Shown here: piece by piece, positions 27,971 through 56,809 of the stretch
Layout of the letters: each line of letters opens with the position of its first letter
Numbering within the stretch: the stretch's first letter is position 1
From: an uncultured Gammaproteobacteria bacterium
GTDB taxonomy: Bacteria; Patescibacteriota; Patescibacteriia; Magasanikbacterales; GWA2-37-8
Direction: 5' to 3'
Assembly (NCBI GenBank): GCA_964510885.1
Contig: CAZEDL010000001.1
Coordinates: 312,982-376,981, forward strand
Length of the DNA stretch: 64,000 nucleotides
The notes under the pieces: generated by a model
Databases searched by the model: none
Told to the model about the DNA's origin: nothing
What the model saw: the letters and a program-made list of their open reading frames with translations, nothing else
Program-made: the position numbers and the translations under genes

Positions 27971-28372
27971 ATGGAACGTATTACCACTATTGACCAATCA
28001 CTCTCCACCACGGTGGAGCAACCGGAAGCGATGGAGCTAAAAAAAGACGGGAAATTTTCTGATTTGTTTAATGTAATAGATGGTGTTATTAAAAATATTG
28101 ATATATCTCTAGCCCAAGCCAGCTTTGTGAGAAAAGCTCATCAAAAATTTTTTCCTCGATGGTTTTCGGCCTCAGACGCTATACGAATGAACAGTATTTT
28201 AGAGCAAGAAGAAACTCTCTATTCTGATTTAGTTGTCGATTCTGAATCAGGAATAATCAATTTTACTATCCAGTGTAAAATTCAAAAAAAGACACTGACC
28301 CGTTCTTTTCGTGGAATACTTAAATCGTTTAAGCGTGATAACCAAGAGATATATGGGATCGCTTGGGAGTAG
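27971..28372 (+). CDS. Hypothetical protein (133 aa) within the pur operon
   Basis: ORF only. Not PurS-like by eye. Confidence 0.3.
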   Translation: MERITTIDQSLSTTVEQPEAMELKKDGKFSDLFNVIDGVIKNIDISLAQASFVRKAHQKFFPRWFSASDAIRMNSILEQEETLYSDLVVDSESGIINFTIQCKIQKKTLTRSFRGILKSFKRDNQEIYGIAWE

Positions 28373-31951: not shown

Positions 31952-31958
31952 TGTAAAT

Positions 31959-32918: not shown

Positions 32919-32921
32919 GTT

Positions 32922-34205: not shown

Positions 34206-34219
34206 ATGAATAACTACTT

Positions 34220-34873
34220 ATGATACAGGCCGTAATTTTTGACATGGATGGGCTCATGATAGACAGCGAGCCGATACAATCACGGGCGATCGAGGCGGTG
34301 ATTCGATCGTATGGCAAGGAACCAATCTTGAATGAATATGGAGTCGTACAAAACTTTGGTATGCGCGCCGAAGATGATTGGGGAGCAAAAAAAGAGCAGC
34401 TAGGAATTACTGAAGATACGTCTATTTTGATCCAGAAGAAATCAGCTATTTATACAGAGATGCTGAAAGTCGCGATTACGGTAAAACCTGGTTTGCAGGG
34501 CTTGATTAGGTTGTTCCAAGCTCATGGCCTACCCATGGCAATCGGCTCCTCTTCTTCCTTATCTGATATTCACCTGGTAGTACACCACCTCGGACTGGAA
34601 ACAGCTTTTACTACTATTGTATCAGGGCAAGATGTTACTCGCGGCAAACCAGCGCCAGATATTTTTCTTGAAGCGGCTAAGCGATTGCAGATCGCGCCGA
34701 TCAATTGCTTGGTACTCGAAGACGCTCTGAGCGGGGTGGAAGCCGGCGTGCGGGCAGGGATGAAGGTGATCGCCGTCCCAAATCAATACGTGTCACCCGA
34801 TCGATATACACAGGCTGACCGAACTCTTGGTTCACTGGCAGATATTACCTGGGAAATGATTCAATCACTGTAA
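34220..34873 (+). CDS. HAD-superfamily hydrolase (beta-phosphoglucomutase/phosphatase-like)
   Basis: Motif I VIFDMDGLMIDSE, motif II S/T, motif III K...LEDALSGVEAGVRAGM. Confidence 0.7.
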   Translation: MIQAVIFDMDGLMIDSEPIQSRAIEAVIRSYGKEPILNEYGVVQNFGMRAEDDWGAKKEQLGITEDTSILIQKKSAIYTEMLKVAITVKPGLQGLIRLFQAHGLPMAIGSSSSLSDIHLVVHHLGLETAFTTIVSGQDVTRGKPAPDIFLEAAKRLQIAPINCLVLEDALSGVEAGVRAGMKVIAVPNQYVSPDRYTQADRTLGSLADITWEMIQSL

Positions 34874-34879
34874 GACTCT

Positions 34880-35848
34880 ATGCACTACGAGCAAGTAATC
34901 AAAACCCATCTGAATAACTGTGTAACCGTTACTGATTTTAATTTCGGCAAGAAGCGAATCGGTAAAGTCCGTGACACTTACGAATTACCTGATACATTAA
35001 TTTTGGTTACCACCGACCGCCAAAGCGCTTTCGACCGAGTGCTGGCTGCCATCCCCTTCAAAGGACAGGTGCTGAATCAGACGAGCGCCTGGTGGTTTGA
35101 GAAAACGAAGCATATTGTGCCGAATCATGTGCTCTCGGTGCCCGATGCCAATGTGACGATCGGAAAAAAATGTACTGTATTTCCGGTCGAGTTTGTCGTG
35201 CGGGGTTACATTACGGGCACTACGAGCACCAGTGCGTGGGTCAACTACCACAATGGCATGCGGGAGTTTTGCGGGAATACCTTACCAGAGGGACTGAAAA
35301 AAAATCAGCGGTTTGACCTGCCCATTATCACTCCGACTACCAAATCCGATGAACACGATCGTTTGATCAGTCCTAAAGAAATTATCTCCGAGGGCCTGAT
35401 GACAGCGGCCGATTGGGACTATGTGAGCAGCAAAGCATTAGAACTGTTTAGTTTTGGTCAAAAAGTCGCGGCTGAACACGGGCTGATTTTAGTCGATACG
35501 AAATATGAATTTGGTAAGGATGTTGATGGAACTATTCGGATTGTAGATGAGATGCATACCCCAGATTCCAGTCGGTATTGGATTGCCAAATCCTACGAGC
35601 AGCGGATGACGGAAGGAAAAGAACCAGAGAATATTGACAAAGAATTTTTACGGTTGTGGTTTACCGAGCATTGCGACCCCTATCATGATAAAGAACTACC
35701 ACCAGCGCCGGAAGAACTGGTCATTGAGCTATCACGACTATACATTCAATTATATGAGATGATTACTGGGGAGAAATTTATTTTTCCAGAACAGAATGAA
35801 TCTATTACTGAACGGATTAACCAGTCGCTAAAAAAGTATACGTTATAA
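34880..35848 (+). CDS. purC: Phosphoribosylaminoimidazole-succinocarboxamide synthase (SAICAR synthetase), long form
   Basis: GKVRDTYELPDTLILVTTDRQSAFD, and FVVRGYITG for ATP binding. Confidence 0.8.
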   Translation: MHYEQVIKTHLNNCVTVTDFNFGKKRIGKVRDTYELPDTLILVTTDRQSAFDRVLAAIPFKGQVLNQTSAWWFEKTKHIVPNHVLSVPDANVTIGKKCTVFPVEFVVRGYITGTTSTSAWVNYHNGMREFCGNTLPEGLKKNQRFDLPIITPTTKSDEHDRLISPKEIISEGLMTAADWDYVSSKALELFSFGQKVAAEHGLILVDTKYEFGKDVDGTIRIVDEMHTPDSSRYWIAKSYEQRMTEGKEPENIDKEFLRLWFTEHCDPYHDKELPPAPEELVIELSRLYIQLYEMITGEKFIFPEQNESITERINQSLKKYTL

Positions 35849-35866
35849 TTTATAAATTATAATTGT

Positions 35867-36991
35867 GTGTCCAAAACGTTAGGCATTATCGGCGGCGGAC
35901 AATTAGGGCGCTTGCTCTGTGAAGCAGCGCGGTCGCTTGGGATACGCACGATCGTGCTTGACCCAACTCCAGATAGCCCGGCAGGACAAGTAGCAGATGA
36001 GCAAATAATTGGGGATTATAGAGATCCCGCTGCTATTAAAAAATTAGCTAAGCGAGTAGACGTATTGACTTGGGAAATAGAATCAACCAATGCTGCGGCA
36101 CTTATCAAACTCAAGGAGACAGGAATCAATGTAGAGCCATCACCCGAACAGCTACTGGTTATTCAAGATAAATTGTTGCAAAAAAAATTACTTCAACAGG
36201 CTGGCATTCCAGTGGCCGATTTTTGTGAATTATCAGACTCCAATGAATTGCCTCAAATTGCTAAGGAATATGGATATCCGTTTCTCTTGAAAGCGCGCTG
36301 CCAGGCCTTTGATGGAAGAGGGAATTATTTGGTTCGATCTGTGAAAGATATCCCAGCGGCCTTAGCGAAACTTGGAAAAGCTGATTTGTATGTGGAGCGG
36401 TATATTCCCTTTCAAAGGGAACTGGCTATTCAGGTGGCACGCAGCCAGAGCGGAAAAATTAGTCTTTTCCCGTTAGTCGAAACGATACAGAAAAATAATA
36501 TTTGCCATAGCGTGATGGCACCAGCGCGAGTTTCGGCAATAATTACGAAACAAGCTTTACTCATTGCCCAAAAAGTGGCGCGTGAGCTGAAAGGAGCAGG
36601 AGTATTTGGTATTGAATTCTTTTTGACTAGGGATAAGAAAATTGTGGTCAATGAAATTGCCCCGCGCGTGCACAATAGCGGGCACTATACGATCGAAGCG
36701 TGCAGTGTATCGCAATTTGAACAACACGTACGATTGGTGTGCGGGTTACCGGCTAAAAAAATTAAACTTATTTCATCAGCGGTAATGATTAATCTGCTAG
36801 GCGACCGCATGGGTCTGGCAGAATGGAAGGGTTTAGATAAAATTAATAAGCAAAAAAATGTATTTGTTCATGTATACGGCAAAGAAGAAGTTAAGCCGGA
36901 GCGGAAGATGGGGCACATCACGGTCTTAGGGAGAACTGCTGGAGTGGCTTGGCGAACAGCTTTGGAAATTAGGAAAAAGATTAGGATATAA
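35867..36991 (+). CDS. purK: N5-carboxyaminoimidazole ribonucleotide synthase (ATP-grasp)
   Basis: LGIIGGGQLGRLLCEAA Rossmann, ATP-grasp core, position next to purE. Confidence 0.8.
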   Translation: MSKTLGIIGGGQLGRLLCEAARSLGIRTIVLDPTPDSPAGQVADEQIIGDYRDPAAIKKLAKRVDVLTWEIESTNAAALIKLKETGINVEPSPEQLLVIQDKLLQKKLLQQAGIPVADFCELSDSNELPQIAKEYGYPFLLKARCQAFDGRGNYLVRSVKDIPAALAKLGKADLYVERYIPFQRELAIQVARSQSGKISLFPLVETIQKNNICHSVMAPARVSAIITKQALLIAQKVARELKGAGVFGIEFFLTRDKKIVVNEIAPRVHNSGHYTIEACSVSQFEQHVRLVCGLPAKKIKLISSAVMINLLGDRMGLAEWKGLDKINKQKNVFVHVYGKEEVKPERKMGHITVLGRTAGVAWRTALEIRKKIRI

Positions 36992-37029
36992 ATCAACAAG
37001 ATACCATATTAATTGGTAAAATAAATTAC

Positions 37030-37121
37030 TGTCATCCTGAACACAATGAAGGATCCCTTAACGCTATAATTAGTACAGAATTTTAACTTTAAGGGATTCT
37101 TCGCTACCGCTCAGAATGACA
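37030..37121. repeat. Family-A MITE-like element (copy A4), intergenic between purK and purE
   Basis: tgtcatcctgaacacaatgaaggatccc...ctcagaatgaca. The core is near-identical to copy A3. Confidence 0.75.
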
Positions 37122-37141
37122 ATTCGTTATTACCTCATTAA

Positions 37142-37657
37142 ATGGTTAGTAATTATTTTATGAAAAAACCTTTGGTCGGCATTATTATGGGATCGGATTC
37201 AGATTTACCGCTGATGCAGGAATGCAGCGCCCAGCTCAAAGAATTTGGTATCGCCTATGAACTGACTATTGTGTCGGCTCATCGGACACCCAAGCGCATG
37301 GTGGCGTACGCCGAGGAAGCAGAGCATAAAGGATTACGAGTGATTATTGCTTGTGCGGGTGGCGCGGCGCACTTACCAGGGATGGCGGCATCGCTGACTA
37401 CTCTGCCGGTCATTGGGGTGCCAAGAGAATTAAAAACCTTAAAAGGCATTGATTCACTCCTATCTATTGCCCAGATGCCACCCGGAGTGCCGGTTGCGAC
37501 GATGGCGATCAATGGAGCCAAAAATGCAGCACTACTGGCGGTGCGGATGTTGGCTTTAAGTGATAATACCTTGGCCACTAAGCTTAAAAAATACCAGAAT
37601 GAATTGAAAAATTCAGTTGAGAAAAAGGCTCGGGCGTTAGAAAAAACGATTCGATGA
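37142..37657 (+). CDS. purE: N5-CAIR mutase (PurE)
   Basis: [36 protein letters not shown] motifs. Confidence 0.85.
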
Positions 37658-39027
37658 TAATAATAGAACCTACTATGCCTACTTTACAAAATCTTTCCCC
37701 TCTCGACGGCCGTTACGCGGAAAAAATATCCGAACTTACCAACTATTTTTCCGAAATGGCACTGATGAAATACCGCCTTCTGGTTGAGATTGAATATTTT
37801 ATCGCGCTGAGTCTAGAGCCGAAAATTGAAGAGTTTCCCCCGTTAGCCGAGGATACGCAACAGCTGCTCCGTGATATCTATGTACAGTTTTCTGTAGCCG
37901 ACGCCGAACACATCAAAACTATCGAACAGACGACTCAGCACGATGTAAAGGCGGTGGAATATTTTTTAAAAGAAAAAATCAGCGCTCTCCCTTGTTCTGA
38001 ACACGCTGAATTTATTCATTTTGCACTCACCTCCGAAGATATAAACAATCTGGCCTATTCACTGATGTGGAAACAGGCTCTAACCGAGATCTATCTGCCA
38101 GTCTTTACCGAGGTGATAGAAAAAATTACCGCCTTTGCCAAAACTAACGCCTCTGTTCCCCTCTTGGCGCTCACCCATGGGCAGAGCGCTACACCGACGA
38201 CTGTGGGCAAAGAATTTGCAGTGTTTGCTAACCGATTGACCCGCCAATTACAACACCTACAAAGACAAACCTTTCTGGGGAAACTGAGTGGGGCGACAGG
38301 TACGTGGAGTGCACAGACTCTCGCGTATCCCGCAATTGACTGGCTAGCATTCAGCGAATCATTCATTACTGCACTCGGGCTTGAGCCTAACCTGGTTACA
38401 ACTCAAATTGAACCCCACGATTCGCTCGCGGAAAGTTTTCATACGCTAGAGCGGATTAATACAATCTTGATCGATTTTACTCGTGATGTCTGGCTGTATA
38501 TCATGCGCGGCGTCTTGGGACAGACGAAAAAGGAAGGCGAGGTAGGCTCAAGTACCATGCCCCACAAAATTAATCCTATTCATTTTGAAAATGCGGAGGG
38601 AAATTTGGGAATTGCTAATGCGTTATTTGGACATCTGGCAGAAAAGTTACCTGTTTCACGACTACAACGAGATCTTACTGATAGTACTGTGCTTCGAAAT
38701 ATCGGCGTGCCACTCGGTCATTCCCTCTTGGCTTGCCAGAGTATTTTGACTGGCCTGTCGCGCGTGACAGTGAACGAAGAAAAAGTGAACGAAGAATTAG
38801 GACAGCACTACGAAATTCTCGCTGAGGCGATCCAAATCGTTTTACGCAAAGTTGGTTACCCCAAACCATATGAAAAGCTAAAAGAGTTAACGCGCGGAGA
38901 AAAAATTACCAAAGAAAAAATTTACCAATTTGTTTCTGAACTTGAAATCTCAAAAGCAGAAAAAGACGTATTATTAGCGCTAACACCACAAACGTATATT
39001 GGGCTTGCAACTAAGCTCGCTTCCTAA
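37654..39027 (+). CDS. purB: Adenylosuccinate lyase
   Basis: SPLDGRY N-terminus, fumarate-lyase signature [11 protein letters not shown]. Confidence 0.85.
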
Positions 39028-39040
39028 TCTATTTTCTATG

Positions 39041-40495
39041 TGTGGAATCTTGGGCATCTATTCTCACAAATCAGTGGCTCATGACCTCTATGATGGCCTC
39101 ATCCACCTGCAGCATCGCGGTCAGGATGCAGCCGGTATGCTTACGTTTAATAACCACTTTCATCTTAAAAAAGGTCTTGGTTATGTGCGCGACGTGTTTG
39201 ACCAAGATCATATGGAACGCTTGGAAGGTAATTGGGGTATCGGGCACACGCGCTACCCGACAGCCGGATCGCGTAGTGATGTGGAGAATGCCCAGCCATT
39301 TTATGTGTCTTCACCCTATGGTATTGCAATGGCGCATAACGGCGACTTGACGAATTACGCAGCACTCAAAACAGAACTAGAACAAAAAGATCGACGACAA
39401 TGCAACTCAAGCTCAGACCTCGAGGTGATATTGCATGTATTTGCAGCGAAACTGGAATCTTTGCCCGCGAGTAATGATTTTTTTGATGCTATTTGTCAGG
39501 CGGTAGAAGCGGTCTATACCAGAACTCGCGGTGCGTATTCTGTAGTCGGAATGATTGCCGACAAAGGCATGGTAGCTTTTCGCGATCCGCATGGGATTCG
39601 GCCCTTTGTCTATGGCGAACGAAAAAATGTTGACGGCACGACCGATTATATTTTTTCATCGGAAAATACGATGTATTACCCACTCGGATTCAGCTTGATT
39701 GGAGATGTGCAGCCAGGAGAAATTATTTTCGTCGATGCGACAGGACAACTGCATCGAAGGCAAATTCGGAAGGAGTTATTTACGCCCTGTATTTTTGAAT
39801 ATGTCTATTTGGCTCGTCCGGACGCTACCCTGAATGATGTGAGCGTTTATCGGGCACGTTTACGTATGGGTCAAAATCTGGCTCGGGCTTGGAAAAATAA
39901 ATATCCGGATGTAATTCCGGATATTGTGATTCCGGTTCCCTTTTCTTCCAATACTGCCGCACTCTCAATGGCACATGAGTTGGGCGTGCGGTATTCTGAG
40001 GGTTTATACAAAAACCCGTTTGTGGGCCGGACTTTTATCATGCCTGGTCAAGCTAAGCGACGGAAATCGGTGTTGCAAAAATTATCTCCACAAATTTTTG
40101 AGATTAAAGACAAAAATGTGCTGCTGGTTGATGACTCGATTGTCCGCGGTACCACCAGCCAGGAGGTAGTAAAATTAGTCCGTGATGCGGGAGCCAAAAA
40201 GGTCTACTTTGCCTCGGCATGCCCGCCGGTGAAATACCCTGATTTTTATGGTATTGATATGCCCACAAGCAGCGAGCTCATTGCTTCGCATAAAACCGAA
40301 GATGAGATTCGTGAATTTATCGGAGCTGATATTTTACTTTACCAAACTATTGACGATCTAGTAGAAGCCGTGACGCGTAAAGGCAACCATCATATTGATC
40401 GGCCGAGCATGCCGTATTTGGATGGGTGGTATGTGACCGGAGATATAAATAGTAACAAGCTAGAGGAATTGGAGAAGGAAAAGAAGAGCTGTTAA
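39041..40495 (+). CDS. purF: Amidophosphoribosyltransferase
   Basis: Ntn MCGILGIY, PRTase loop LVDDSIVRGTT. The six-frame ORF starts earlier, at 38999; the Met-Cys start is the likely one. Confidence 0.85.
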   Translation, partial: CGILGIYSHKSVAHDLYDGLIHLQHRGQDAAGMLTFNNHFHLKKGLGYVRDVFDQDHMERLEGNWGIGHTRYPTAGSRSDVENAQPFYVSSPYGIAMAHNGDLTNYAALKTELEQKDRRQCNSSSDLEVILHVFAAKLESLPASNDFFDAICQAVEAVYTRTRGAYSVVGMIADKGMVAFRDPHGIRPFVYGERKNVDGTTDYIFSSENTMYYPLGFSLIGDVQPGEIIFVDATGQLHRRQIRKELFTPCIFEYVYLARPDATLNDVSVYRARLRMGQNLARAWKNKYPDVIPDIVIPVPFSSNTAALSMAHELGVRYSEGLYKNPFVGRTFIMPGQAKRRKSVLQKLSPQIFEIKDKNVLLVDDSIVRGTTSQEVVKLVRDAGAKKVYFASACPPVKYPDFYGIDMPTSSELIASHKTEDEIREFIGADILLYQTIDDLVEAVTRKGNHHIDRPSMPYLDGWYVTGDINSNKLEELEKEKKSC

Positions 40496-40550
40496 TAATT
40501 ATTTAAAACAATATTAAAAGGATATTAAGCGGCTATTGAGAGGATATTTT

Positions 40551-42020
40551 ATGAATATTTTACTTGTTGGTTCAGGAGCTCGTGAACATGCCATTGCTCG
40601 AGCTATAAAGAAATCAAAGACCGAGACGAATCTTTTTTGTTTTGGTTCAAGTCGGAACCCAGGAATTATAGAACTTGTTTGTCATTCCAACGACGAAGGA
40701 GAAATCTCTGTCCGACACGATAATAACACATTGAACCAGAGATCCCTCGTCGGCGCGAGCCTCGCTCGGGATGACAGTAATGCCTACCGCGTCGGAAAAT
40801 TGGATGACGTCACTTCGATACTACAATTTGCTAAAAAAAATAAAATCGATTGGGCGATTATTGGACCTGAGCTGCCGCTGTCAGTTGGCCTGGTGGATGA
40901 ATTGAAAGCAATTAGCATTCCCTGTATTGGACCGACTAAGCAATTAGCCCAAATTGAAACGAGCAAGGCCTTTGCGCGGGATTTACTTTCTTATCATGGC
41001 GTGCCCGGACTGCCCCAGTACAAACGATTTGATTTTTTTGAAGCACTGGAAGTGATACAGGAATATATTCATTCGCTTGATGATAATTATGTAGTGAAGG
41101 CTGACGGGCTCATGGGTGGTAAGGGGGTTAAAGTCTACGGCGAGCAGCTACAAAGTTTTGAGGATACACTGCAATTTATCTTAGAAATAAAAGCAGCCAA
41201 TAGCCCATTTGTAATCGAAGAAAAATTCGTGGGGCAAGAATTTTCACTGATTAGCTTTTGTGATGGGGTACACCTGGCCCATATGCCGGCAGTGCAAGAT
41301 CATAAACGGGCCTATGTTGGCGATACCGGACCTAATACGGGTGGTATGGGCAGTTATTCGGACAGCAATCACTCACTCCCTTTTTTAACTGAAAAAGATA
41401 TTGCCCAGGCTCAAAAAATAAATGAATTAACAGCAGCGGCACTACTCAAGCAATTTGGCGTACCCTACAAAGGCATCCTGTATGGTGGTTTTATGACTAC
41501 GGCAGAAGGGGTGAAACTGATTGAATATAACGCCCGCTTTGGCGATCCGGAAAGCATTAATGTCTTGGCGTTACTGGAAACTGATTTGGTGGAAATTTGT
41601 CAGGCGATTACCAGCGGCGCCTTAGACACTATAGAGATTAAGTGGAAAAATGTAGCCACTGTTTGTAAATATGTTGTACCCGAAGGATATCCTGATAATC
41701 CGGTAAAAAATCAAGTTGTCGATGTTTCGGAAGTTAAGGATGCAGATTCTTTATATTTCGCGGCAATTGATGAACGAGAAGGAAAATTATATGAAACTGG
41801 TTCGCGAGCCATTGCGGTATTGGGTGTAGGCACCACTATTACTGAAGCGGAACAAAAAGCCGAGGAAGAAATTAAACAAATTAAAGGTTCACTATTTCAT
41901 CGGGAAGATATTGGGACAGAGGAGTTGATTGAGAAGAGAGTTCAGATAATGAGTCAAATACGCAATGAACGCAATCCCCGCTTGGGCGGGGTAGGGGTGG
42001 GTGAGTCCGCTGAGCTTTAA
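40551..42020 (+). CDS. purD: Phosphoribosylamine-glycine ligase (GAR synthetase). It has an in-frame MITE insertion (40680-40777), and its last ~16 codons come from the left inverted repeat of the DUF559 element.
   Basis: MNILLVGSGAREHAIA, ATP-grasp core, C-terminal domain. Insert CHSNDEGEISVRHDNNTLNQRSLVGASLARDDSN is palindromic DNA. The C-terminus NPRLGGVGVGESAEL is encoded by a B-family half-site. Confidence 0.85.
   Translation: MNILLVGSGAREHAIARAIKKSKTETNLFCFGSSRNPGIIELVCHSNDEGEISVRHDNNTLNQRSLVGASLARDDSNAYRVGKLDDVTSILQFAKKNKIDWAIIGPELPLSVGLVDELKAISIPCIGPTKQLAQIETSKAFARDLLSYHGVPGLPQYKRFDFFEALEVIQEYIHSLDDNYVVKADGLMGGKGVKVYGEQLQSFEDTLQFILEIKAANSPFVIEEKFVGQEFSLISFCDGVHLAHMPAVQDHKRAYVGDTGPNTGGMGSYSDSNHSLPFLTEKDIAQAQKINELTAAALLKQFGVPYKGILYGGFMTTAEGVKLIEYNARFGDPESINVLALLETDLVEICQAITSGALDTIEIKWKNVATVCKYVVPEGYPDNPVKNQVVDVSEVKDADSLYFAAIDEREGKLYETGSRAIAVLGVGTTITEAEQKAEEEIKQIKGSLFHREDIGTEELIEKRVQIMSQIRNERNPRLGGVGVGESAEL
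40680..40777. repeat. Family-A MITE-like element (copy A5) inserted in-frame in purD
   Basis: tgtcattccaacgacgaaggagaaatctctg...cagagatccctcgtcggcgcgagcctcgctcgggatgaca. The right end is ~85% identical to the TIR of the GIY-YIG element. It is read in the same frame (TGT CAT ... GAC A) as copy A3. Confidence 0.7.
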
Positions 42021-42438
42021 GAGACATACTTATGTTAAACAATCAAACCCATAAAAATTATAAGCCCTCCCTTAAGCCACTCACTCGTCACTTACGTACG
42101 AATTCTACATTAAGCGAGGTTATTTTATGGAATCATCTTAAAAATCGAGGCTTATTAGGTTATAAATTTCGACGTCAAACTCCTATTTTAAATTATATTG
42201 TTGATTTTTATTGTAAAGAATTACAGTTAGCGATTGAGATTGACGGGATAACTCATGATGAAAAAATTGAGTATGATGTGGAGCGACAGAAAAAAATGGA
42301 AAAAGTTGGTATCTTTGTGTTACGGTTTCAAGATAGTGAAATTAAAAAGGATATTGATATTATCCTGCAACGAATTGTTGAGTGGGTAAACGGCCACGCA
42401 TCGCCCTCACCCACCCCTACCCCGCCCAAGCGGGGATT
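41973..42438 (+). mobile_element. Inverted-repeat-flanked element (family B, copy B1) carrying a DUF559/Vsr-like endonuclease gene, inserted at the purD/purN junction
   Basis: Left IR aatccccgcttgggcggggtaggggtgggtgag (41973-42005). Right IR ctcacccacccctaccccgcccaagcggggatt (42406-42438), its exact reverse complement. The DUF559 ORF lies between them. Confidence 0.7.
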
Positions 42439-43036
42439 GCTATCCAGTGACGCCGGTATACACCTTGCCATCCTCGGTTCCACACGCGGTACCAATCTGC
42501 AAGCGATTATTGATGCTATTGCAGAAAAAAAATTAAACGCTTATATCGATATCGTTATCAGCAATAAAGCCGATGCCTATATTTTGGAGCGCACCAAGCA
42601 ACATGGATTACGGGTCGTTTTTATCGATAGCAGAAATAAAAGCCGAGAACAGTTTGACCAAGAAGTTTTAAATGAATTAAAAAAATATCATATTGATCTC
42701 GTCCTGCTTATCGGTTACATGCGTATCCTCTCCCCCACTTTCGTACAGACGTATAGAAATAAAATTTTAAATGTTCACCCGTCCCTACTCCCCGCCTTTG
42801 CTGGCGGGATGGACATGAATGTACATGAAGAAGTGTTAAAATCAGGGGTGACAGAAACGGGTTGTACGATTCATCTGGTTGACGATGGAGTGGATACCGG
42901 CAAGATTTTGCTGCAAAAAAAATGTACCGTTGAACCAGGGGATACGGCGGAGAGTTTGAAAGATAAAGTGCAACAATTGGAGGGAGAAGCGTGGATTGAA
43001 ATATTAAAAAATTGCAATTTAACAGATACTTTCTAA
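42032..43036 (+). CDS. purN: Fusion ORF: an N-terminal DUF559 endonuclease-domain protein (Vsr/PD-(D/E)xK-like, ~125 aa) fused in-frame, through the right IR, to phosphoribosylglycinamide formyltransferase PurN. The PurN part is ~42437-43036, with a possible TTG start at 42437.
   Basis: DUF559 signature LRTNSTLSEVILWNHLKNRGLLGYKFRRQTPILNYIVDFYC...IEIDGITHDE...VLRF. PurN: LAILGSTRGTNLQAII, NVHPSLLPAFAG, DTGKIL. There is no in-frame ATG at the PurN N-terminus. Confidence 0.7.
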   Translation: MLNNQTHKNYKPSLKPLTRHLRTNSTLSEVILWNHLKNRGLLGYKFRRQTPILNYIVDFYCKELQLAIEIDGITHDEKIEYDVERQKKMEKVGIFVLRFQDSEIKKDIDIILQRIVEWVNGHASPSPTPTPPKRGLLSSDAGIHLAILGSTRGTNLQAIIDAIAEKKLNAYIDIVISNKADAYILERTKQHGLRVVFIDSRNKSREQFDQEVLNELKKYHIDLVLLIGYMRILSPTFVQTYRNKILNVHPSLLPAFAGGMDMNVHEEVLKSGVTETGCTIHLVDDGVDTGKILLQKKCTVEPGDTAESLKDKVQQLEGEAWIEILKNCNLTDTF

Positions 43037-43040
43037 TTTT

Positions 43041-44732
43041 ATGAATCTTTCCCTCACCCCTATCACTCGCGCCCTCATCTCCGTCTCTGATAAAACCGGC
43101 ATTATTGCTTTTGCCGAAAAATTAGCTGAAAAAAATGTGGAAATTATTTCCACTGGCGGGACGGCCAAAGCCCTCGTGGAAGCAGGGATTCCGGTCATTG
43201 AAATTTCTGATTTCACTGGTTTCCCAGAAATGATGAATGGCCGAGTAAAAACCCTTCACCCCAAAGTTCATGGCGGCATTCTGGGCCTCAGGGACGCACA
43301 CGCGAGTACTGCCGCCGAGCATGGAATCAAGTGGATCGATTTGGTGGTGTGTAATCTATATCCATTCGCTGCCACTATTCAGAAACCGGGCGTGAGTGAA
43401 GACGAAGCGATTGAGAATATTGATATCGGCGGGCCGAGCATGATAAGGAGTGCGGCCAAAAATGTGGGGTGGGTCGGGGTAGTGGTTGATCCGTCAGATT
43501 ATGAGTTTGTGAAGGGTGAATTAGAAACACAAGGCGGAATCACGATCGAGACGCGAAAAAGATTATCAGCCAAAGCATTTGGGCATACGGCGGCATATGA
43601 TGCGCTGATCAGTAATTATTTTAATGCAGAGCCATTCCCCAGCGAGCTGACACTCGGCTACAAAAAATTCTATGATTTGCGCTATGGAGAAAACCCGCAT
43701 CAGCTCGCTTGCGTGTATCAAGAATCAATACCGACTGATCAGAATGTACTCGGGGCAATCATTCATCAAGGTAAGCAGCTCTCCTACAACAATATTAACG
43801 ATGCGGATGGCGCGTGGTTCACTCTCAGGGAATTCCCTGAGCCGACCTGCGTGGTAGTAAAACATGCTAATCCATGTGGGGTGGCAAGCGATAGCGATAT
43901 TACTGTAGCATTTAAACGGGCCTATGCAGCGGATGCGCTCTCGGCCTTTGGTGGTGTCATTGCTTTGAATCGACCGTGTACCGCAGCTATTGCTGAGGAG
44001 ATAGCCAAAGTCTTTGCCGAAATTGTGTTGGCTCCTTCATATGAAACTAAGGCTTTGGAAGTATTGGCACCAAAAAAGAATTTACGAGTGTTAGAAATGA
44101 AGAGAGAGGCGGCTGTACATAACACACAAAATCCCCGCTTGGGCGGGGTAGGGGTGGGTGAGACCTTTGCGTCGCCGGACTCAACGACCTCACCCACCCC
44201 TGGCCTGTGGGCCACCCCCGCCCAAGCGGGGATTGTCCGTCGACCAGTTTATAAATCTGAACTAAAAAACAATTCACCGTTAGAGTATCGTTTTATTAAT
44301 GGTGGACTGCTCGTACAGGAGCAAGATACTAAAGAGATAACTCTGCCTGACCTCAAAATTGTCACTGCTAAACAACCAAGCGAACAAGAATTACAAACTA
44401 TGCTGTTTGCCTGGAAAGTCTTGAAACACATGAAATCAAATGCGATTTTGGTTGCCAAAGACAATACCACGGTGGGAGTTGGTGTGGGGCAGGTGTCGCG
44501 CGTGGATGCGGTGGATATCGCGCTCAAGAAAGCTGGAGATCGCTTGAACGGCTCAATTTTGGCCTCTGATGCCTTCTTCCCTTTTCGCGATAGTATTGAT
44601 AAACTGGCGGGAACTGGAATTACCGCCATCATTCAACCGGGCGGGTCAGTGAAAGACAAGGAAGTGATCGAGGCCTGCAACGAGCATGGGATTGCGATGG
44701 TGTTTACGGGAGTGAGGTGTTTTAAGCATTAA
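43041..44732 (+). CDS. purH: Bifunctional AICAR transformylase/IMP cyclohydrolase, with an in-frame 35-codon palindromic insert (44130-44234)
   Basis: MGS-like N-terminus RALISVSDKTGI, AICARFT core. Insert NPRLGGVGVGETFASPDSTTSPTPGLWATPAQAGI is encoded by B-family half-sites. Confidence 0.9.
   Translation: MNLSLTPITRALISVSDKTGIIAFAEKLAEKNVEIISTGGTAKALVEAGIPVIEISDFTGFPEMMNGRVKTLHPKVHGGILGLRDAHASTAAEHGIKWIDLVVCNLYPFAATIQKPGVSEDEAIENIDIGGPSMIRSAAKNVGWVGVVVDPSDYEFVKGELETQGGITIETRKRLSAKAFGHTAAYDALISNYFNAEPFPSELTLGYKKFYDLRYGENPHQLACVYQESIPTDQNVLGAIIHQGKQLSYNNINDADGAWFTLREFPEPTCVVVKHANPCGVASDSDITVAFKRAYAADALSAFGGVIALNRPCTAAIAEEIAKVFAEIVLAPSYETKALEVLAPKKNLRVLEMKREAAVHNTQNPRLGGVGVGETFASPDSTTSPTPGLWATPAQAGIVRRPVYKSELKNNSPLEYRFINGGLLVQEQDTKEITLPDLKIVTAKQPSEQELQTMLFAWKVLKHMKSNAILVAKDNTTVGVGVGQVSRVDAVDIALKKAGDRLNGSILASDAFFPFRDSIDKLAGTGITAIIQPGGSVKDKEVIEACNEHGIAMVFTGVRCFKH
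44130..44234. repeat. Family-B palindromic MITE-like element (copy B2), with no cargo gene, in-frame inside purH
   Basis: aatccccgcttgggcggggtaggggtgggtgag ... ctcacccacccctgg..cccgcccaagcggggatt. Both half-sites are the same as those flanking the DUF559 gene. Confidence 0.75.
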
Positions 44733-44738
44733 TTTACT

Positions 44739-44880
44739 TGTCATTGCGAGGAGTGATCCCGATTCGCATCGGGAGAACGACGAAGCAATCCCTTTGATTT
44801 CAGAACTACTTAAAATTAAAAATACCCCTGCAAACAAGGGGATTGCCACGTCTTCGCTTGGGCTCCTCCTCGCAATGACA
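44739..44880. repeat. Family-A MITE-like element (copy A6), nested palindromes, intergenic between purH and the amidohydrolase
   Basis: tgtcattgcgaggag...ctcctcgcaatgaca outer IR. Inner hairpins atcccgattcgcatcggga and aatcccc..ggggatt. The terminal cAATGACA supplies an in-frame ATG to the downstream ORF. Confidence 0.7.
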
Positions 44881-44892
44881 CAGTATCATTTT

Positions 44893-46266
44893 ATGAATAA
44901 CTTCTCTCGTTCCCCTCGCTATAACGTACTCAAACCAGACCATGAGCCCAAGCGAATTCTTATTCATGGATTACGTTTTATATTGACTAGCAGCGAATCT
45001 GAGAGATTAAGTGTGGTACCCGACCAATCATTACTTATTGAGGACGGAGAAATCACTGAGCAATTTCCTAAAAAAGAATTGGACAAAAGGGTTGATCTCA
45101 AAACCATCGATCTCATTTATGATGCCGAACAAAAAGGTGGAATTGTTGCAACGCCGGGCTTTATAAATCTACATTCTCATCCGCCGATGTATCTGCTGCG
45201 CTCCACCCTTACACTGGCTGAGGATAATTTGGAAGAAGCGCTGCGCGGCATGGCGAAGCTCGAAGCCAAAATGAATACTGAGGATTTTTACCTCGGAGCA
45301 CTCGGTGACTTTACGGAGCAGCAAAAATCAGGAATCACGACTACGCTCAGCCACTATGGCGTGTTCGATCCGATTGAGCGAGCGGCGAGTGAATCGGGAC
45401 AGCAGGTTATTAATTGCTTATCGGCAGCAAGCAATTCACATCCAGAGAATACGCCAGCCTTGGTAGAAAAGTACTTGAAGAAAAAAAATACGGTGACTAC
45501 GCCTGGTATTGCCCTGCACTATGTGTGGAAAGCAACTCCACCGACGCTGAAAAAGATTGCCGCTTTGATTAAAAAATACAACGCGTACTTTACGGTGCAT
45601 GTGGCCGAGAGCGAACAGACCGTGGAGCGGTGCCTCGAGGCCTATGGCGAGCGGCCGGTGGCAGTCTTGGCCAAATATGATTTACTGGGGCCGCGAACGA
45701 TCATTAGCCATGCGGTCCATTTGACTCCCGAAGAAATTAGCATCATTAAAAAAACAGGGACTATCGTGGTGCACCTGCCTACTTCGAATTTGTTGCATCG
45801 TTCAGGACAATTTAAGTATACAGAATTTTCGCGGCAGCAAGCCAAACAGTTGATTACGCTCGGGACTGATAGCGTGATCAGTAAGAATCGGCTGGATTTA
45901 CTGAGCGAAGCGTTGGCCATGAAGACGTTGCATCAGGCTAAAGAAATTATTTCGTACGAAGAATTATTTAATGTGCTCACGGCACAACCGGCTAAGCTCC
46001 TCGGATTAAAAAAGCTCGGTCAGATTAAACCGGGCTTTACGGCGAATTTGTGTTTTTGGAAGCTGAAAGATCGAGGGCTATTGCCGTATGATGAGGACCA
46101 TCCGGAAACTCTGGTGAGTAATTTAATTACTCATGGGAGTCGCGGAGTGCGGGATTTGATGATTAAGGGGCGATTTGTTATTAGTAATCGGTATCATAAT
46201 TTGGTGGATGAGAGTGGGCTATTGGAGAAACTACAGACAGCACATATGGAACTGAGAAAACGTTAA
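44893..46266 (+). CDS. Amidohydrolase-superfamily protein (metal-dependent deaminase-like, e.g. guanine/adenosine-type). The six-frame ORF starts at 44794, inside the MITE.
   Basis: GFINLHSHPPMY metal-binding HxH, and later H and D ligands (VHVAES, HAVHL, GTDS). Confidence 0.6.
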   Translation: MNNFSRSPRYNVLKPDHEPKRILIHGLRFILTSSESERLSVVPDQSLLIEDGEITEQFPKKELDKRVDLKTIDLIYDAEQKGGIVATPGFINLHSHPPMYLLRSTLTLAEDNLEEALRGMAKLEAKMNTEDFYLGALGDFTEQQKSGITTTLSHYGVFDPIERAASESGQQVINCLSAASNSHPENTPALVEKYLKKKNTVTTPGIALHYVWKATPPTLKKIAALIKKYNAYFTVHVAESEQTVERCLEAYGERPVAVLAKYDLLGPRTIISHAVHLTPEEISIIKKTGTIVVHLPTSNLLHRSGQFKYTEFSRQQAKQLITLGTDSVISKNRLDLLSEALAMKTLHQAKEIISYEELFNVLTAQPAKLLGLKKLGQIKPGFTANLCFWKLKDRGLLPYDEDHPETLVSNLITHGSRGVRDLMIKGRFVISNRYHNLVDESGLLEKLQTAHMELRKR

Positions 46267-46273
46267 TTTCTAC

Positions 46274-46688
46274 TGTCATCCCGAGGAACGAGGGATCCCC
46301 TGGTTTGAGTAAGTAGTAAATAAGCAGAAATATATATGTTACAACCAACTTACTACATCTACTTCCTCATGAACGCCTATCATAGTGTCCTGTATGTGGG
46401 TGTTACCAATGATTTAGCCAGACGTATTTCAGAACATAAACAGCATTTAATTCCTGGTTTTACCAAAAAATATAATGTTGATAATTTAGTTTATTGCGAA
46501 TCATTTAGTGATATTAATCAAGCAATTCAACGAGAGAAAGAATTGAAGGGGTGGCGACGTTCGAAAAAATTAGAATTAATAAAAAGCATCAATAGTGACT
46601 TAAGAGATTTGAGTAAGGAGTGGGAGTAATTTTTTATTATTTTACTGGGCACTGCATACAGGGGGATCCCTCCTTCGTCGGGATGACA
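46274..46688 (+). mobile_element. Inverted-repeat-flanked element (family A, copy A7) carrying a GIY-YIG nuclease gene
   Basis: Left TIR tgtcatcccgaggaacgagggatcccc (46274-). Right TIR ggggatccctccttcgtcgggatgaca (-46688). The two are ~28 bp, reverse complements of each other, ~85% identical. A single 97-codon ORF lies between them. Confidence 0.7.
46336..46629 (+). CDS. GIY-YIG family nuclease (URI-domain, YhbQ/COG2827-like)
   Basis: YYIYFLMNAYHSVLYVGVTNDLARRISEHK...REKELKGWRRSKKLELI matches GIY..YIG, the catalytic R and E, and the KxWxRxxK tail. Confidence 0.8.
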   Translation: MLQPTYYIYFLMNAYHSVLYVGVTNDLARRISEHKQHLIPGFTKKYNVDNLVYCESFSDINQAIQREKELKGWRRSKKLELIKSINSDLRDLSKEWE

Positions 46689-46704
46689 AGAACGATTGAA
46701 CTTG

Positions 46705-48180
46705 CTACTCCCCCACTCGATAATTCGGTGCCGAACGCATTTCGCGCAAATCATGCGGGTGACTCTCTTTGAGACCGGCATTACTGATTTTAACGAGTAC
46801 TGCTTTCTGATGTAGTTCTTTTATCGTAGCGGCACCGACATACCCCATACCACTGCGGAGACCGCCGGCGAGTTGGTACAGAATCCGATCAACAGGTCCT
46901 TTATAGGCCACACGGCCGCTCACGCCCTCGGGAACAAATTTAGTTTTTTCTTTGACTTCGGCCTGGCCATAGCGATCTTTACTGCCACGCTCCATAGCTT
47001 CCATGCTGCCCATGCCGCGGTAGACTTTGAACATGCGGCCATCAATATATTCTACGCGGCCAGGTGATTCATCGGTACCGGCAAACATGTTGCCCATCAT
47101 CACCGTGTCGGCACCGGCAGCGAGCGCCTTCACAATATCACCAGACGTTTTTATTCCTCCGTCAGCGATAATAAGCGGATGTTTTTTTGTTTTTTTAAAT
47201 GCTGCAGCCACATCAAGAACGGCTGAAAGTTGCGGCACCCCGACTCCGGCTATAATACGCGTGGTACAGATAGAACCCGGGCCAATGCCTACTTTTACCG
47301 CATCGGCGCCAGCGGCGGCAAGGGCGAGAGCTGCAGTGCCGGTGGCGATATTACCTGCGATAATAGCCTGATCTTTGTAGGCTTTACGCAGGCGTTTCAC
47401 GGCGTTTATTACTCCACTCGAATGCCCATGGGCGGTATCTACGACCAGCACATCAACCCCGGCTCGAATGAGCGCTTCGGCCCGCTCAAAACCCGCATCG
47501 CCTACCCCGACTGCGGCACCGACCCGCAATTGCTTGGCAACGTTCTTGGCAGCGTCTGGATAGAGCTCGTTTTTTTCCATGTCTTTACGGGTCACGATGC
47601 TGACTAATTTTCCGGCCGTGTCGACAATACACAGGGTCTTGAGTTTATTTTTACGGATCATGGCATTCGCTTCCTCTAGGCGCATACCTGCTTGACCAAC
47701 TATTAATTCAGCGACGCTTTGCATCCGGAATTTGACCATAAGGTCGTTATCGTCTGGAGCAAAATAATCAACATCACTAATAAGACCGACGAGAACACCC
47801 TTACTATCTACCACGGGAATTTTCTTATAACCCTGCTCGGTGCGTAATTGCTGTACAAGGCTAATTTTATCTTCTGGTTTGACCGTGACGGGATTTTCAA
47901 TAAAGCCGTTTTCAAAACGCTTGACGCGCTGCACTTCGAGCACCTGTTCATCGATTGAAAGATTTTTATGAATAATGCCCATGCCACCAGCCAAGGCAAG
48001 TGCGATAGCCATTTTGTGCTCGGTAACGGTATCCATAGGTGCACTTAAAAAGGGCAATTGCAGCTTGATATCTGGCGTGAGCCAGGTCGCGAGCTCGGTG
48101 TCTTTGGGCAATAGATCAGAGGCTTGGGGCACGAGCAAGACATCGTCAAAGGTGAGCGTTTCTTGGAGAGGGGTAAACAT
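46705..48180 (-). CDS. guaB: IMP dehydrogenase (with CBS pair)
   Basis: [11 protein letters not shown], catalytic [31 protein letters not shown] subdomain. Confidence 0.9.
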
Positions 48181-48243
48181 ATTTTGAAAAGTTCTAAGTA
48201 ACCTAATTTCTAATGTCTAATATAATGTCCAATGTTAATTTTA

Positions 48244-48700: not shown

Positions 48701-50536
48701 ATGGAAGCCTCTAAAAATGAAATTGCAATTCTCGACTTTGGATCACAGTATACCCACCTCATTGCCCGGCGGATCAGAGAATTAGGAGTGGTTTCACACA
48801 TTTATCCGACCGATATAGCGGCCAAAAACCTTAAAAACGTAGTCGGCATTATTCTCTCGGGGGGGCCAAAAAGTGTCGTACGGGAAGAGACTCTCCCCTA
48901 TGACAAAGATATTTTTGATCTCGGAATTCCGATCTTGGGGCTCTGCTATGGCCACCAACTCATGGCCATGCATTTTGGTGGAGTGGTCGGAGCGGGTAGT
49001 GCTCGGGAATACGGGCAAGCCGAGCTAACGGTACAGGCTTCACCCATCTTCAAGAATATCCCTAAGCGCTCAACGGTGTGGATGAGTCATGGCGATCATG
49101 TATCGGTCGTCCCGCCGGGTTGGCAGGCTATTGCGGATAGTGGCGGCGAGGCAGTGGCGGCCATGGAATACTCCGAAAAAAAATGGTACGGATTCCAATT
49201 TCATCCGGAGGTGTATCACTCCGCGCACGGGAAAAAGATGTTAAGTAATTTTGTGTTTGATATCTGCGGAGCCAGCAAGAATTGGGATTCCAAAACGCAA
49301 CTGAAAACGGTAAGTGAAGAAATTAAACAGGCCGCGGGAGATAAAAATGTCTTTTTACTGGTGAGTGGAGGCGTGGATTCTACGGTCTGTTTCGCACTCC
49401 TTGAAAAAATACTGGGCAAGAATCGGGTGTACGGTTTGCATGTAGATAGTGGCCTCATGCGTCTTGATGAGAGTAAGAAAATTACTCGGGCTCTAAAACA
49501 AACTGGCTTTTCTAACTTACACGTTTATCACGCAGAAAAAGAATTTTTAAATCGACTAAAAGGAATTATTGAACCAGAACAAAAAAGAAAAATCATTGGC
49601 GACACCTTCCTCGACATCGTGGATCGGGTGATGAAAGAAAAAAACATGGATTCTGGTGGATGGCTCGTTGGCCAAGGCACCATTTACCCCGATACGATTG
49701 AATCCGGAGGAACCAAACATGCGGTGGTGATCAAAACTCACCACAACCGCGTGCCACGGATCCAGCAGATGATTGCGGAGGGAAAAATTATTGAACCGCT
49801 GAAAGAGTTATACAAAGATGAGGTGCGGGCAATTGGGCGCCAGCTTAAGCTACCAAAAGAATTAATTGAGCGGCATCCGTTCCCGGGGCCAGGACTGGGG
49901 ATTCGGATTTTGTGTTCAAAGGGGTCGAAAGAGAGAGCTACACCTATTGAAGGTGATAGATTCCCGCTGCTACGCGGGAATGACACTGAGGATAGTAATA
50001 CACTCTATTCCCTACCAATTAAATCCGTCGGTGTGCAGGGTGACGAACGATCGTATTCGCATCCAGCCATTATTATTGGGAACAGTCTGGCCGAAGAGAA
50101 AAAAATCTGGAAGACCATTCACACTCTAGCACCAGCTATTACCAATCAACATCATGAAGTGAATCGCGTGATGCTGCCTGTGCTGGGAGACAGAAAAAAA
50201 ATCTTGACATCGCGTGTGCATGCGGCAACCCTGACTAAAAAGCGAATTGCACTATTACAAAAAATCGATGCTATCGTGCATCGTTATGTGCTGGCAGCTA
50301 AATCATGTAGCCACATTTGGCAATTGCCGGTGGTGTTGGTGCCGTTTGGTTATAAGCACAGAGAATCAATCGTGCTCCGACCATTTCAATCCGAAGAAGT
50401 GATGACCGCTTCGTTTGCCCTGATCCCATGGCCAGTACTCAAAAAAATTCTGGCAGCGATTGCGAGGCTGAAAGCAGTTGATTTTGTGTTTTATGATGTG
50501 ACGAATAAGCCTCCTGGTACTATTGAATGGGAATAA
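48701..50536 (+). CDS. guaA: GMP synthase (glutamine-hydrolysing)
   Basis: GATase ILDFGSQYTHLIARRIRELGV, catalytic LGLCYGHQ, HPE. PP-loop VSGGVDSTV. C-terminal dimerisation domain. Confidence 0.9.
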   Translation: MEASKNEIAILDFGSQYTHLIARRIRELGVVSHIYPTDIAAKNLKNVVGIILSGGPKSVVREETLPYDKDIFDLGIPILGLCYGHQLMAMHFGGVVGAGSAREYGQAELTVQASPIFKNIPKRSTVWMSHGDHVSVVPPGWQAIADSGGEAVAAMEYSEKKWYGFQFHPEVYHSAHGKKMLSNFVFDICGASKNWDSKTQLKTVSEEIKQAAGDKNVFLLVSGGVDSTVCFALLEKILGKNRVYGLHVDSGLMRLDESKKITRALKQTGFSNLHVYHAEKEFLNRLKGIIEPEQKRKIIGDTFLDIVDRVMKEKNMDSGGWLVGQGTIYPDTIESGGTKHAVVIKTHHNRVPRIQQMIAEGKIIEPLKELYKDEVRAIGRQLKLPKELIERHPFPGPGLGIRILCSKGSKERATPIEGDRFPLLRGNDTEDSNTLYSLPIKSVGVQGDERSYSHPAIIIGNSLAEEKKIWKTIHTLAPAITNQHHEVNRVMLPVLGDRKKILTSRVHAATLTKKRIALLQKIDAIVHRYVLAAKSCSHIWQLPVVLVPFGYKHRESIVLRPFQSEEVMTASFALIPWPVLKKILAAIARLKAVDFVFYDVTNKPPGTIEWE

Positions 50537-50572
50537 TGAAAAAAACCTGCGACAGACGCAGGTTTTTTAGTA

Positions 50573-52042: not shown

Positions 52043-52366
52043 ATGTGGGCATTACCTCCCTAAGTTCGCTTATTTATCAATAATACGATATACCCCACCG
52101 TACACTATCAGAATGCCGCCAGCAGTCCACCACCAGCCGTATTGGCCAGAAAAATAGCCGCTGACATAGGCCATGAGGCAAATACTGGCAGCGATGAAGG
52201 CTACCATATGGCGGATAAAATTATCGGTCATATGAAGTTACACAGAAAGCAAATGTCAGGAGTTACGTAGTTTTTATTTTTATCAGTATACCATTTTTAG
52301 AGAAAAAAATGAACAGGGTAATTAAAAAATCTTGCTGAGGAGCAAGATTTTTTGTGATTTTAACCG

Positions 52367-56776: not shown

Positions 56777-56807
56777 TAAAAAATCCTGCTTCTAGGCAGG
56801 ATTTTTT
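56777..56807. terminator. Bidirectional rho-independent terminator between the convergent lipoprotein and hypothetical genes
   Basis: aaaaaatcctgc-ttctag-gcaggatttttt: a perfect 8-bp stem flanked by an A-run and a T-run. Confidence 0.7.
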
Positions 56808-56809
56808 AA

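Follow-up and report, generated by a model that had tools for sequence, protein, structure and literature searches.

REPIN-RAYT systems consist of doublets of repetitive extragenic palindromic (REP) sequences and a REP-associated tyrosine transposase (PMC3116915, PMC5581495), and palindromes residing within genes are known as Rickettsia palindromic elements (RPEs) and other intragenic miniature transposable elements with inverted repeats (MITEs; PMC10969869, a review; PMC1779305). Among PD-(D/E)XK proteins, DUF559 shares a clade with Vsr and with a Vsr-like homing endonuclease of a group I intron, PDB 3r3p (PMC3424549, Table 1). Here we describe an element in which a DUF559 gene is enclosed by inverted arms of a hairpin repeat, lies between the purine biosynthesis genes purD and purN and continues in-frame into purN. 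It was found in a 64-kb stretch of one contig from an uncultured groundwater bacterium (hereafter the window), and the genome was seen within that stretch. DUF559 is a very large family of unknown function, and a literature search on it returned nothing on an association with repeats. At this locus known phenomena are combined, namely palindromic repeats inside genes, enzyme genes associated with repeats, and the fusion of genes where an element ends.

Judged by its layout, REPIN-RAYT is the closest known analogue of the DUF559-repeat element, although the enzyme is unrelated. In both cases, one enzyme gene is enclosed by a short hairpin repeat in inverted orientation, the same repeat makes up dozens of palindromic doublets of ~100 nt per genome, the gene-adjacent arms match the sub-family of the genome's short copies, and the enzyme has persisted for long under housekeeping-like purifying selection. 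However, the enzyme here is a Vsr-like PD-(D/E)XK protein of the DUF559 family and not an IS200/IS605-type HUH (Y1) tyrosine transposase, and DUF559 has no known transposition activity. The locus also differs in that the 3′ end of the open reading frame (ORF) lies inside the right arm, the element having no stop codon, and in that the repeats are often intragenic and translated, with a patchy presence at purD/purN between sister genomes. The RPEs are likewise palindromes of ~100–150 bp located in-frame in housekeeping genes, where they add peptides at tolerated positions, but they contain no nuclease gene and their sequence family is unrelated, whereas here the nuclease-bearing copy joins the expression signals of two genes and fuses with one of them.

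With free-standing homing endonuclease genes the locus shares a nuclease of the same fold clade, a gene lodged between conserved genes, and presence or absence at one site in pairs of sister genomes (the window and contig L004, contigs L001 and L005). In contrast to them, neither an intron nor an intein is involved, the inverted repeats at the borders of the gene are also present in many short copies, and the nuclease has diverged about as far as the host genes, rather than showing signs of a recent spread. Vsr endonucleases have a related fold within the same Pfam clan, and JGI calls many of the homologues 'very-short-patch-repair endonuclease'; the protein described here, however, matches PF04480 (DUF559) instead of the Vsr family itself, its gene forms part of a repeat element, and no cytosine methyltransferase partner was found among the annotated neighbours at 28311–48180. 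Fusions of the formyltransferase also occur naturally. The human GART domain forms the C-terminal part of a larger protein (GARS-AIRS-GART), after two other domains, and PurU consists of an ACT domain and a formyltransferase. As in these proteins, the PurN fold tolerates a large linker-joined N-terminal partner; unlike in them, the partner is a repeat-element nuclease instead of a pathway enzyme or regulatory domain, and the fusion arose through signal loss at the element boundary.

The DUF559-PurN reading frame and its conservation

A single uninterrupted frame of 334 aa on the + strand (42032–43036) encodes, in this order, a complete DUF559 domain, a Pro/Thr-rich stretch contributed by the right inverted repeat, a linker of 8 codons and the whole of PurN. 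That this frame is unbroken had been claimed in an earlier note on this DNA, and the domain matches proved to be full: Pfam detected DUF559 at aa 17–118 (5e-33) and Formyl_trans_N at aa 145–324 (4e-53). The Vsr-like nuclease domain (42080–42385, + strand) reached 113.6 bits with PF04480 (gathering score 20.6), covering model positions 6–107 of 109, and in Pfam the enzyme matched nothing but DUF559/MTES_1575; this half also resembles PDB 3hrl (2e-17). The motif D...E-x-D-G-x-x-H is kept, D58, E69, D71, G72 and H75 being each present in 47 of 47 sequences and all in the window protein, which likewise has every one of the family-invariant residues D58, E69, D71, H75, D82 and R85. From these matches, the DUF559 half is predicted to be a PD-(D/E)XK nuclease.

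The PurN (GAR transformylase) domain (42458–43033, + strand), whose first β-strand starts from aa 143, scored 192.6 bits with the NCBIfam PurN equivalog TIGR00639 (cut-off 150.1). Model positions 2–182 of 192 were aligned to aa 144–326, and the first model position falls on the ATA codon at 42458. N247, H249 and D288 were invariant in 20 aligned sequences; the catalytic residues of the E. coli enzyme are N106, H108 (NxHPSLLP motif) and D144. Between the right arm and PurN lies the linker LLSSDAGI (8 codons, 24 nt, 42437–42460, + strand). An AlphaFold2 model of the fusion, built on alignment A3, had a mean predicted local distance difference test score (pLDDT) of 86 and contained two confident domains, aa ~11–122 (DUF559, pLDDT >90) and aa 143–326 (PurN, ~90). 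The low-confidence segment between them, aa ~123–142, corresponds to the arm-encoded Pro/Thr stretch plus the linker, with pLDDT <50 at aa 126–138, and the inter-domain linker is thus predicted to be disordered. The top Foldseek matches of the PurN half were all GAR transformylases, mostly with a root-mean-square deviation of ~2 Å and a target-normalised template modelling (TM) score of 0.74–0.88, and this half could be superposed on the human GART domain (target-normalised TM ~0.8) and on PurU.

The element at the junction measures ~470 bp and consists of the left arm (IR-L, 41971–42012), the DUF559 ORF and the right arm (IR-R, 42399–42440, encoding SPSPTPTPPKRG), the two 42-nt arms being 93% complementary to each other. 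The 33-nt core of the arms occurs in three copies in the window vs none in 100 shuffles, the third copy being the left arm of a 105-nt palindrome within purH (43041–44732, + strand), which begins 4 nt past the stop of the fusion ORF. The purD gene (40551–42020, + strand, 489 aa) crosses the left arm in-frame and takes from the element its last ~15 codons (NPRLGGVGVGESAEL) and its stop, a TAA at 42018–42020 directly past IR-L. It had been supposed that the native C-terminus of PurD was replaced by residues encoded in the inverted repeat. The repeat-encoded tail and stop were confirmed, but the native end is extended rather than replaced: TIGR00877 (421 bits) covers model positions 1–424 of 425 on aa 1–459, the catalytic domains are complete, the usual '...M..(L/I)R' ending is kept, and in the alignment with element-free PurD proteins the element adds ~15 residues while at most 1–3 native ones are replaced. 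An AT-rich spacer of 11 nt (42021–42031, + strand) without a Shine-Dalgarno motif separates the purD stop from the DUF559 ATG.

A search covering 5.8 billion proteins returned exactly two further proteins of DUF559-PurN architecture, P0002 (76% identity) and P0003 (75%), both from Patescibacteria. The former is encoded on contig L001 of GCA_023246665.1, where the gene order is purF-purD-[DUF559-purN] as in the window, and the latter on L002/L003 from a groundwater metagenome, 1.4-kb contigs on which only the 3′ end of purD and the fusion are visible. All three genomes have in common the arms, the 'AEL*' end of purD and the 11-nt gap to the DUF559 ATG, and in 3/3 the distance from the right arm to the His codon of HLAILGS is 24 nt. 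Five of the six arms have the same 33-nt core, among them the left arm of L001 and the right arms of all three genomes. The left arm on L002 is split at 144–174 by a ~31-nt insertion (TCGTACGTCGCCAAAGGCTATGACGACGGCG), through which purD reads and stays in-frame. A metagenome scan for the right arm followed by the PurN motif GSTxGT, with any linker of 25–55 nt, found the known contig only and neither out-of-frame nor further in-frame variants.

The protein-coding parts have diverged considerably among the three genomes. DUF559 is 74–75% identical at the nucleotide and 75–80% at the amino acid level, PurN 68–73% and 72–76%, and the 8-codon linker 42–54% and 0–37%, respectively. Third-position identity is 40–59% in DUF559 and PurN alike, and the ratio of non-synonymous to synonymous divergence (dN/dS), where computable, amounts to ~0.10 in DUF559 and ~0.08 in PurN, while dS has reached saturation. 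The low dN/dS at saturated dS indicates that both halves are maintained as proteins, and both are under purifying selection in all three genomes. The arms are held constant at the DNA level, via constraint or homogenisation with other copies, while the linker drifts freely in sequence with its length and frame kept. Thus, the notion that the purN junction is a fresh disruption is contradicted by synonymous sites that are saturated at a dN/dS of ~0.1, and the arrangement can be regarded as old and selected.

Start of PurN translation

No ATG or GTG is found near PurN, and the TTG at 42437–42439 (+ strand, aa 136), the only in-frame ATG, GTG or TTG between aa 119 and 150, is the sole canonical candidate; in this sense purN has indeed no start codon of its own. 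Together with the purD stop provided by the element, this bears out the core of the earlier reading. The TTG had been placed within the right inverted repeat, behind a weak G-rich Shine-Dalgarno sequence. It does overlap the arm, but it straddles the outermost arm bases, a variable position in the repeat family, and does not lie deep inside. The upstream G-run touches the TTG, and at a spacing of 0–1 nt it cannot act as a Shine-Dalgarno sequence; moreover, the genome rarely uses such motifs, the 4-nt core being present before 6 of the 43 long ORFs of the window (with starts assigned crudely, as the first one in each ORF). The stretches ahead of starts are AT-rich in this genome, and the DUF559 ATG has this usual context, while the 22 nt before the TTG are 77% G+C. 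In the predicted mRNA fold of 41950–42480 the arms pair in a perfect ~35-bp GC-rich helix (−169 kcal/mol, z = −6.7), within which the TTG and the preceding G-run are paired. Codon 136 is TTG in the window and on L002 and ATA on L001; codon 143 is ATA, AAT and ATC, and codon 145 is CTT, TTG and CTC, in the window, on L001 and on L002, respectively. Consequently, no start-codon position is common to all three genomes.

Considering these results, PurN is probably made as a 334-aa DUF559-PurN fusion, translated from the DUF559 ATG through the right arm. The earlier note had left the choice between such a fusion and a start at the TTG; the fusion is the better reading because the TTG is not conserved, being ATA on L001, and is buried in the predicted helix behind 77% G+C. 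Ribosomes finishing purD would reinitiate at the DUF559 ATG, presumably by termination-reinitiation coupling at the 11-nt spacer, would translate the nuclease domain, unwind the arm helix and read the right arm as a flexible Pro/Thr linker. Translation would then continue into PurN, and the GAR transformylase activity would reside in the 334-aa polypeptide. Internal initiation may supplement this route instead of replacing it. Since PurN would then depend on the element for initiation, the element could not be lost without a compensating change, and this, along with selection acting on the nuclease itself, would account for how long it has persisted. If PurN is made only as a fusion, the locus would be a clean natural case of a selfish or semi-domesticated element that secures its retention by capturing the translation signals of a biosynthetic gene, in an arrangement kept long enough for synonymous sites to saturate.

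Several points weigh against translation as a fusion. Bacteria do use TTG as a start codon, and two of the three genomes have it, while on L001 a start at the TTG of codon 145 would cost only the two residues that precede the conserved core. Ribosomes passing through DUF559 would melt the helix, which could permit internal initiation. There are three genomes only, and the absence of indels in the 24 nt is only suggestive (rough p ~0.03–0.2 under neutrality). An active nuclease tethered to a biosynthetic enzyme would be unusual. Finally, an alternative complete purN, which the earlier note had named as a possible refutation, was not found within the 64-kb window, nor was a purT; this search covered the window only, and either gene may lie elsewhere in the genome.

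Alternatively, most PurN could be produced as a separate protein through internal initiation, starting from the TTG at 42437 in the window and on L002, and from the TTG of codon 145 or a near-cognate ATA, ATT or ATC on L001, the read-through from DUF559 being an irrelevant by-product. The TTG is in frame, seven codons ahead of the PurN core, in two of the three genomes; native PurN N-termini differ in length and sequence, which suggests that a short extension is tolerated; and as Shine-Dalgarno sequences are seldom used in this genome, the missing motif is no objection. Nevertheless, we consider this unlikely, for no start position is conserved across the three genomes and the TTG, unlike other starts, lies in a predicted ~35-bp GC-rich helix after 77% G+C. 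Besides, an independent purN start would free the frame of the linker, yet its length is fixed at 24 nt, while the spacing at empty sites ranges from −4 to ~118 nt. The two routes predict different products: the fusion a ~38-kDa species with the tryptic peptides GLLSSDAGIHLAILGSTR and IVEWVNGHASPSPTPTPPK, and the TTG start a ~21-kDa PurN with the N-terminal sequence (f)MLSSDAGIHLAILGSTR ((f)Met-Leu-Ser-Ser-Asp...).

The transcript or the polypeptide of the fusion could also be split after synthesis, by RNase III at the arm helix or by a protease at the Pro/Thr linker, so that free PurN does the work. RNA duplexes of ~35 bp are classical RNase III substrates, and such a duplex, near-perfect, is predicted here; the linker, in turn, is predicted to be disordered and exposed. 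Cutting the helix, however, would strip the purN mRNA of its only good start codon, no protease site could be identified in the sequence, and the proteolytic route would still begin at the DUF559 ATG and hence overlaps with translation as a fusion. We regard splitting as rather improbable. Still far less credible is that the structure is an assembly or sequencing artefact, or that purN is a decaying pseudogene disabled by a transposon-like insertion, even though the native ATG is lost and the sequences come from metagenome-assembled genomes (MAGs). A sequencing error, raised beforehand as a way to refute the fusion, is contradicted by the same element at the same junction, with the same in-frame structure, in three independent assemblies from different samples. 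Against decay speak the PurN dN/dS of ~0.08, the invariant catalytic N247, H249 and D288, a score above the equivalog cut-off and the intact rest of the purine pathway around the locus.

Element-free junctions and the origin of the insertion

The closest PurN proteins without DUF559 are 74–78% identical over the PurN part. Comparison with purD-purN junctions that lack the element, proposed in the earlier note as a check, revealed a normal purD stop and a purN ATG in the relatives. At these loci purD ends with '...M..(L/I)R' plus 1–3 residues followed by the stop, and purN has its own ATG 4–6 codons ahead of HLAILGS. The purD-purN spacing of the empty sites is −4 nt on L007 (an ATGA overlap), 5 nt on L004, 105 nt on L005 and ~118 nt at the P0004 locus. 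The native purN ATG is lost in all three element-bearing genomes.

The distribution of the element at purD/purN is patchy between sister genomes, as far as protein identities indicate relatedness. L001 is sister to the element-free L005 (PurD 83.5%, PurH 90.6%), and the window is closest to the element-free L004 (PurD 78.4%), while PurD identity between the window and L001 is only 67%. Even so, the sequence of the three copies indicates a single origin, since all of them have the inner sequence 'CGCTGAGCTTT(A/G)A', spacings of 11 nt and 24 nt and the frames of both junctions in common, features that other members of the family lack. Three independent insertions were rejected on the same grounds, these features being absent from the elements on L041 and L129 at unrelated sites. 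The patchiness then requires either several later losses or allele replacements that restored the purN start, or a lateral spread, long ago, of the allele with the element into the same site. Past the linker, no tract of co-conversion could be seen, and the 5′ end of the L001 purN resembles that of its sister L005, not that of the window. A relic of the native start on L001 ('GAAATT-AAT' vs 'GAAATT-ATG' on L005) was considered and rejected, because on L005 this sequence is part of a terminal repeat that bounds another palindrome, rich in A+T. A 105-nt AT-rich palindrome (AATTTCTAAT...ATTAGAAATT) occupies 2896–3000 of L005, in the purD-purN spacer, and shows that the purD-purN junction attracts different insertions. 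Motifs like AGACATTAGAAATT, resembling the L005 palindrome, are also present in the window at 14312–14353 and 48188–48229.

The repeat family, its DUF559 genes and the purine cluster

A scan for the arm core in species-representative genomes, in which all counts are lower bounds, detected at least 119 stretches in ~20 MAGs, mostly of Magasanikbacteria-type Patescibacteria, with at least 53 arms in a single one (JBBTSL01). Complete short copies are palindromes of 86–106 nt with the termini ATTCCCCGC...GCGGGGAAT; in most of them the right arm includes a small additional hairpin, and many sit inside palindromes of another family. No consistent target-site duplication was discernible around 46 complete copies, and Rfam at gathering thresholds reported only a tRNA and no match for the repeat, which is not a described RNA family. 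Several repeat-bearing MAGs are labelled 'uncultured Gammaproteobacteria' or 'Candidatus Udaeobacter' (L004, L009, L018, L020, L041 and others), and CAZXIF01 (L004), so labelled, carries Magasanikbacteria-like pur genes; such taxon labels look wrong, or the bins mixed.

Arm-flanked DUF559 genes were also found at unrelated sites, namely in an intergenic position on L041, on L089, upstream of an unrelated gene on L129 and downstream of an unrelated ORF (72–623) on L130. Inverted arms surround DUF559 in the window and on L001, L002, L041 and L089, and both arms are seen in part on L129 and L130. Stand-alone DUF559 ORFs cross the right arm and stop 0–3 codons past it, the TGA on L041 being immediately outside the arm. 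The element thus carries no stop codon of its own, and the ORF ends where the flank first supplies one; for this reason, fusion follows naturally wherever a gene in the same frame forms the flank. The arm sub-families are genome-specific, with inner bases of the 'TGG' or 'GAG' type, and each DUF559 gene is flanked by arms that agree with the short copies in its own genome. The DUF559 proteins split like the arm sub-families, with ~58% identity between the two groups. In the 8-kb blocks around exact matches, one matched DUF559 stands against at least 53 arms in JBBTSL01 and one against at least four in DATION01.

Among the 120 closest DUF559 homologues (P0121–P0240; query 42032–42436), nearly all end in a repeat-like Pro/Thr tail (...PTPxPS(R/K/Q)EGN, NPPLPRPSGE or PTPTPPKRG), and some begin with a mirror-image peptide. 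Such tail-bearing homologues originate from Patescibacteria, Chloroflexi, Bacteroidia and others, and the DUF559 genes of L107 and L070, which are more distant, have another G-rich repeat on their flanks. These sequences suggest that a DUF559 ORF nested between inverted G-rich arms is a general, apparently undescribed architecture. A wider proposal, which we put forward only tentatively, is that DUF559 nucleases might be the resident enzymes of palindromic hairpin-repeat populations, a PD-(D/E)XK counterpart of REPIN-RAYT widespread across phyla, with the repeat family changing along with the DUF559 clade. At purD/purN one such gene would have become irremovable, having captured the purD stop and the purN start, and would be kept as a selected fusion. 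The arms that enclose the DUF559 gene belong to a hairpin repeat dispersed through its own genome, which points to a testable role in the creation or upkeep of such repeats, and by analogy with the RAYTs we hypothesize that the nuclease may take part in their spreading or maintenance. PADLOC gave a marginal match only, to a methyl-directed restriction enzyme (E = 8e-4), and supported no known defence system.

Palindromic inserts are found within genes of the locus as well. The MITE/REPIN-like palindrome in purH (44130–44234, 105 nt, in-frame, 35 codons) adds the 35 residues NPRLGGVGVGETFASPDSTTSPTPGLWATPAQAGI at a loop and folds as a hairpin at −49 kcal/mol (z = −8.3); the PurH proteins of L001 and L004 have no insert and that of L005 has a different one. 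Further lineage-specific repeat-encoded inserts are present at two other loops in the purH genes of relatives. PurD contains an in-frame insertion of ~99 nt in its N-domain (~40680–40780; 33 aa, residues 46–78), which belongs to a different palindrome family (TGTCATTCC...GGGATGACA). The GARS_N model (100 positions) is spread over aa 1–136 of the window PurD, and the PurD proteins of L001, L004 and L005 have a gap at this place; the L007 PurD has another insert at the same position. A repeat of the type TACTGTCATCCTGA...GAAGGA.CCCTTAACGC occurs in purL (29649–29686) and in the purK-purE spacer (37027–37064), and PurL exceeds its model by ~77 residues, a length that fits with additional in-frame inserts. 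Taken together, Magasanikbacteria-type Patescibacteria tolerate, as the locus illustrates, rampant in-frame repeat insertions in core metabolic enzymes, which matters for gene calling and annotation.

The complete de novo purine cluster lies at 28311–48180 and comprises purL (28311–30845), purM (30815–31951), purQ (32922–34205), purC (34880–35848), purK (35867–36991), purE (37142–37657), purB (37654–39027), purF (38999–40495), the purD, DUF559-purN and purH group (40551–44732) and guaB on the − strand (46705–48180). The genome is of the Patescibacteria type, a group often described as lacking nucleotide synthesis. The ATP-grasp ORF at 35867–36991 was considered as PurT and rejected, its score being 163 bits against a cut-off of 502 bits, while the PurK model gave 416 bits. 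The purQ ORF encodes 427 aa, of which the PurQ model covers residues 1–228, and ~200 C-terminal residues are unexplained. Elsewhere in the window, a near-perfect palindrome at 964–1046 (TGTCATTCCCGCAAAAGCGGGAAT / ATTCCCGCTTTCGCGGGAATGACA) may belong to the TGTCAT...ATGACA family, which in other genomes is often found around copies of the main repeat. Hairpins with A- and T-runs on their sides, of the AAAAAATCTTGCTGAGGAGCAAGATTTTTT type, occur at 52315–52353, 56778–56816 and 50535–50568 and look like bidirectional terminators.

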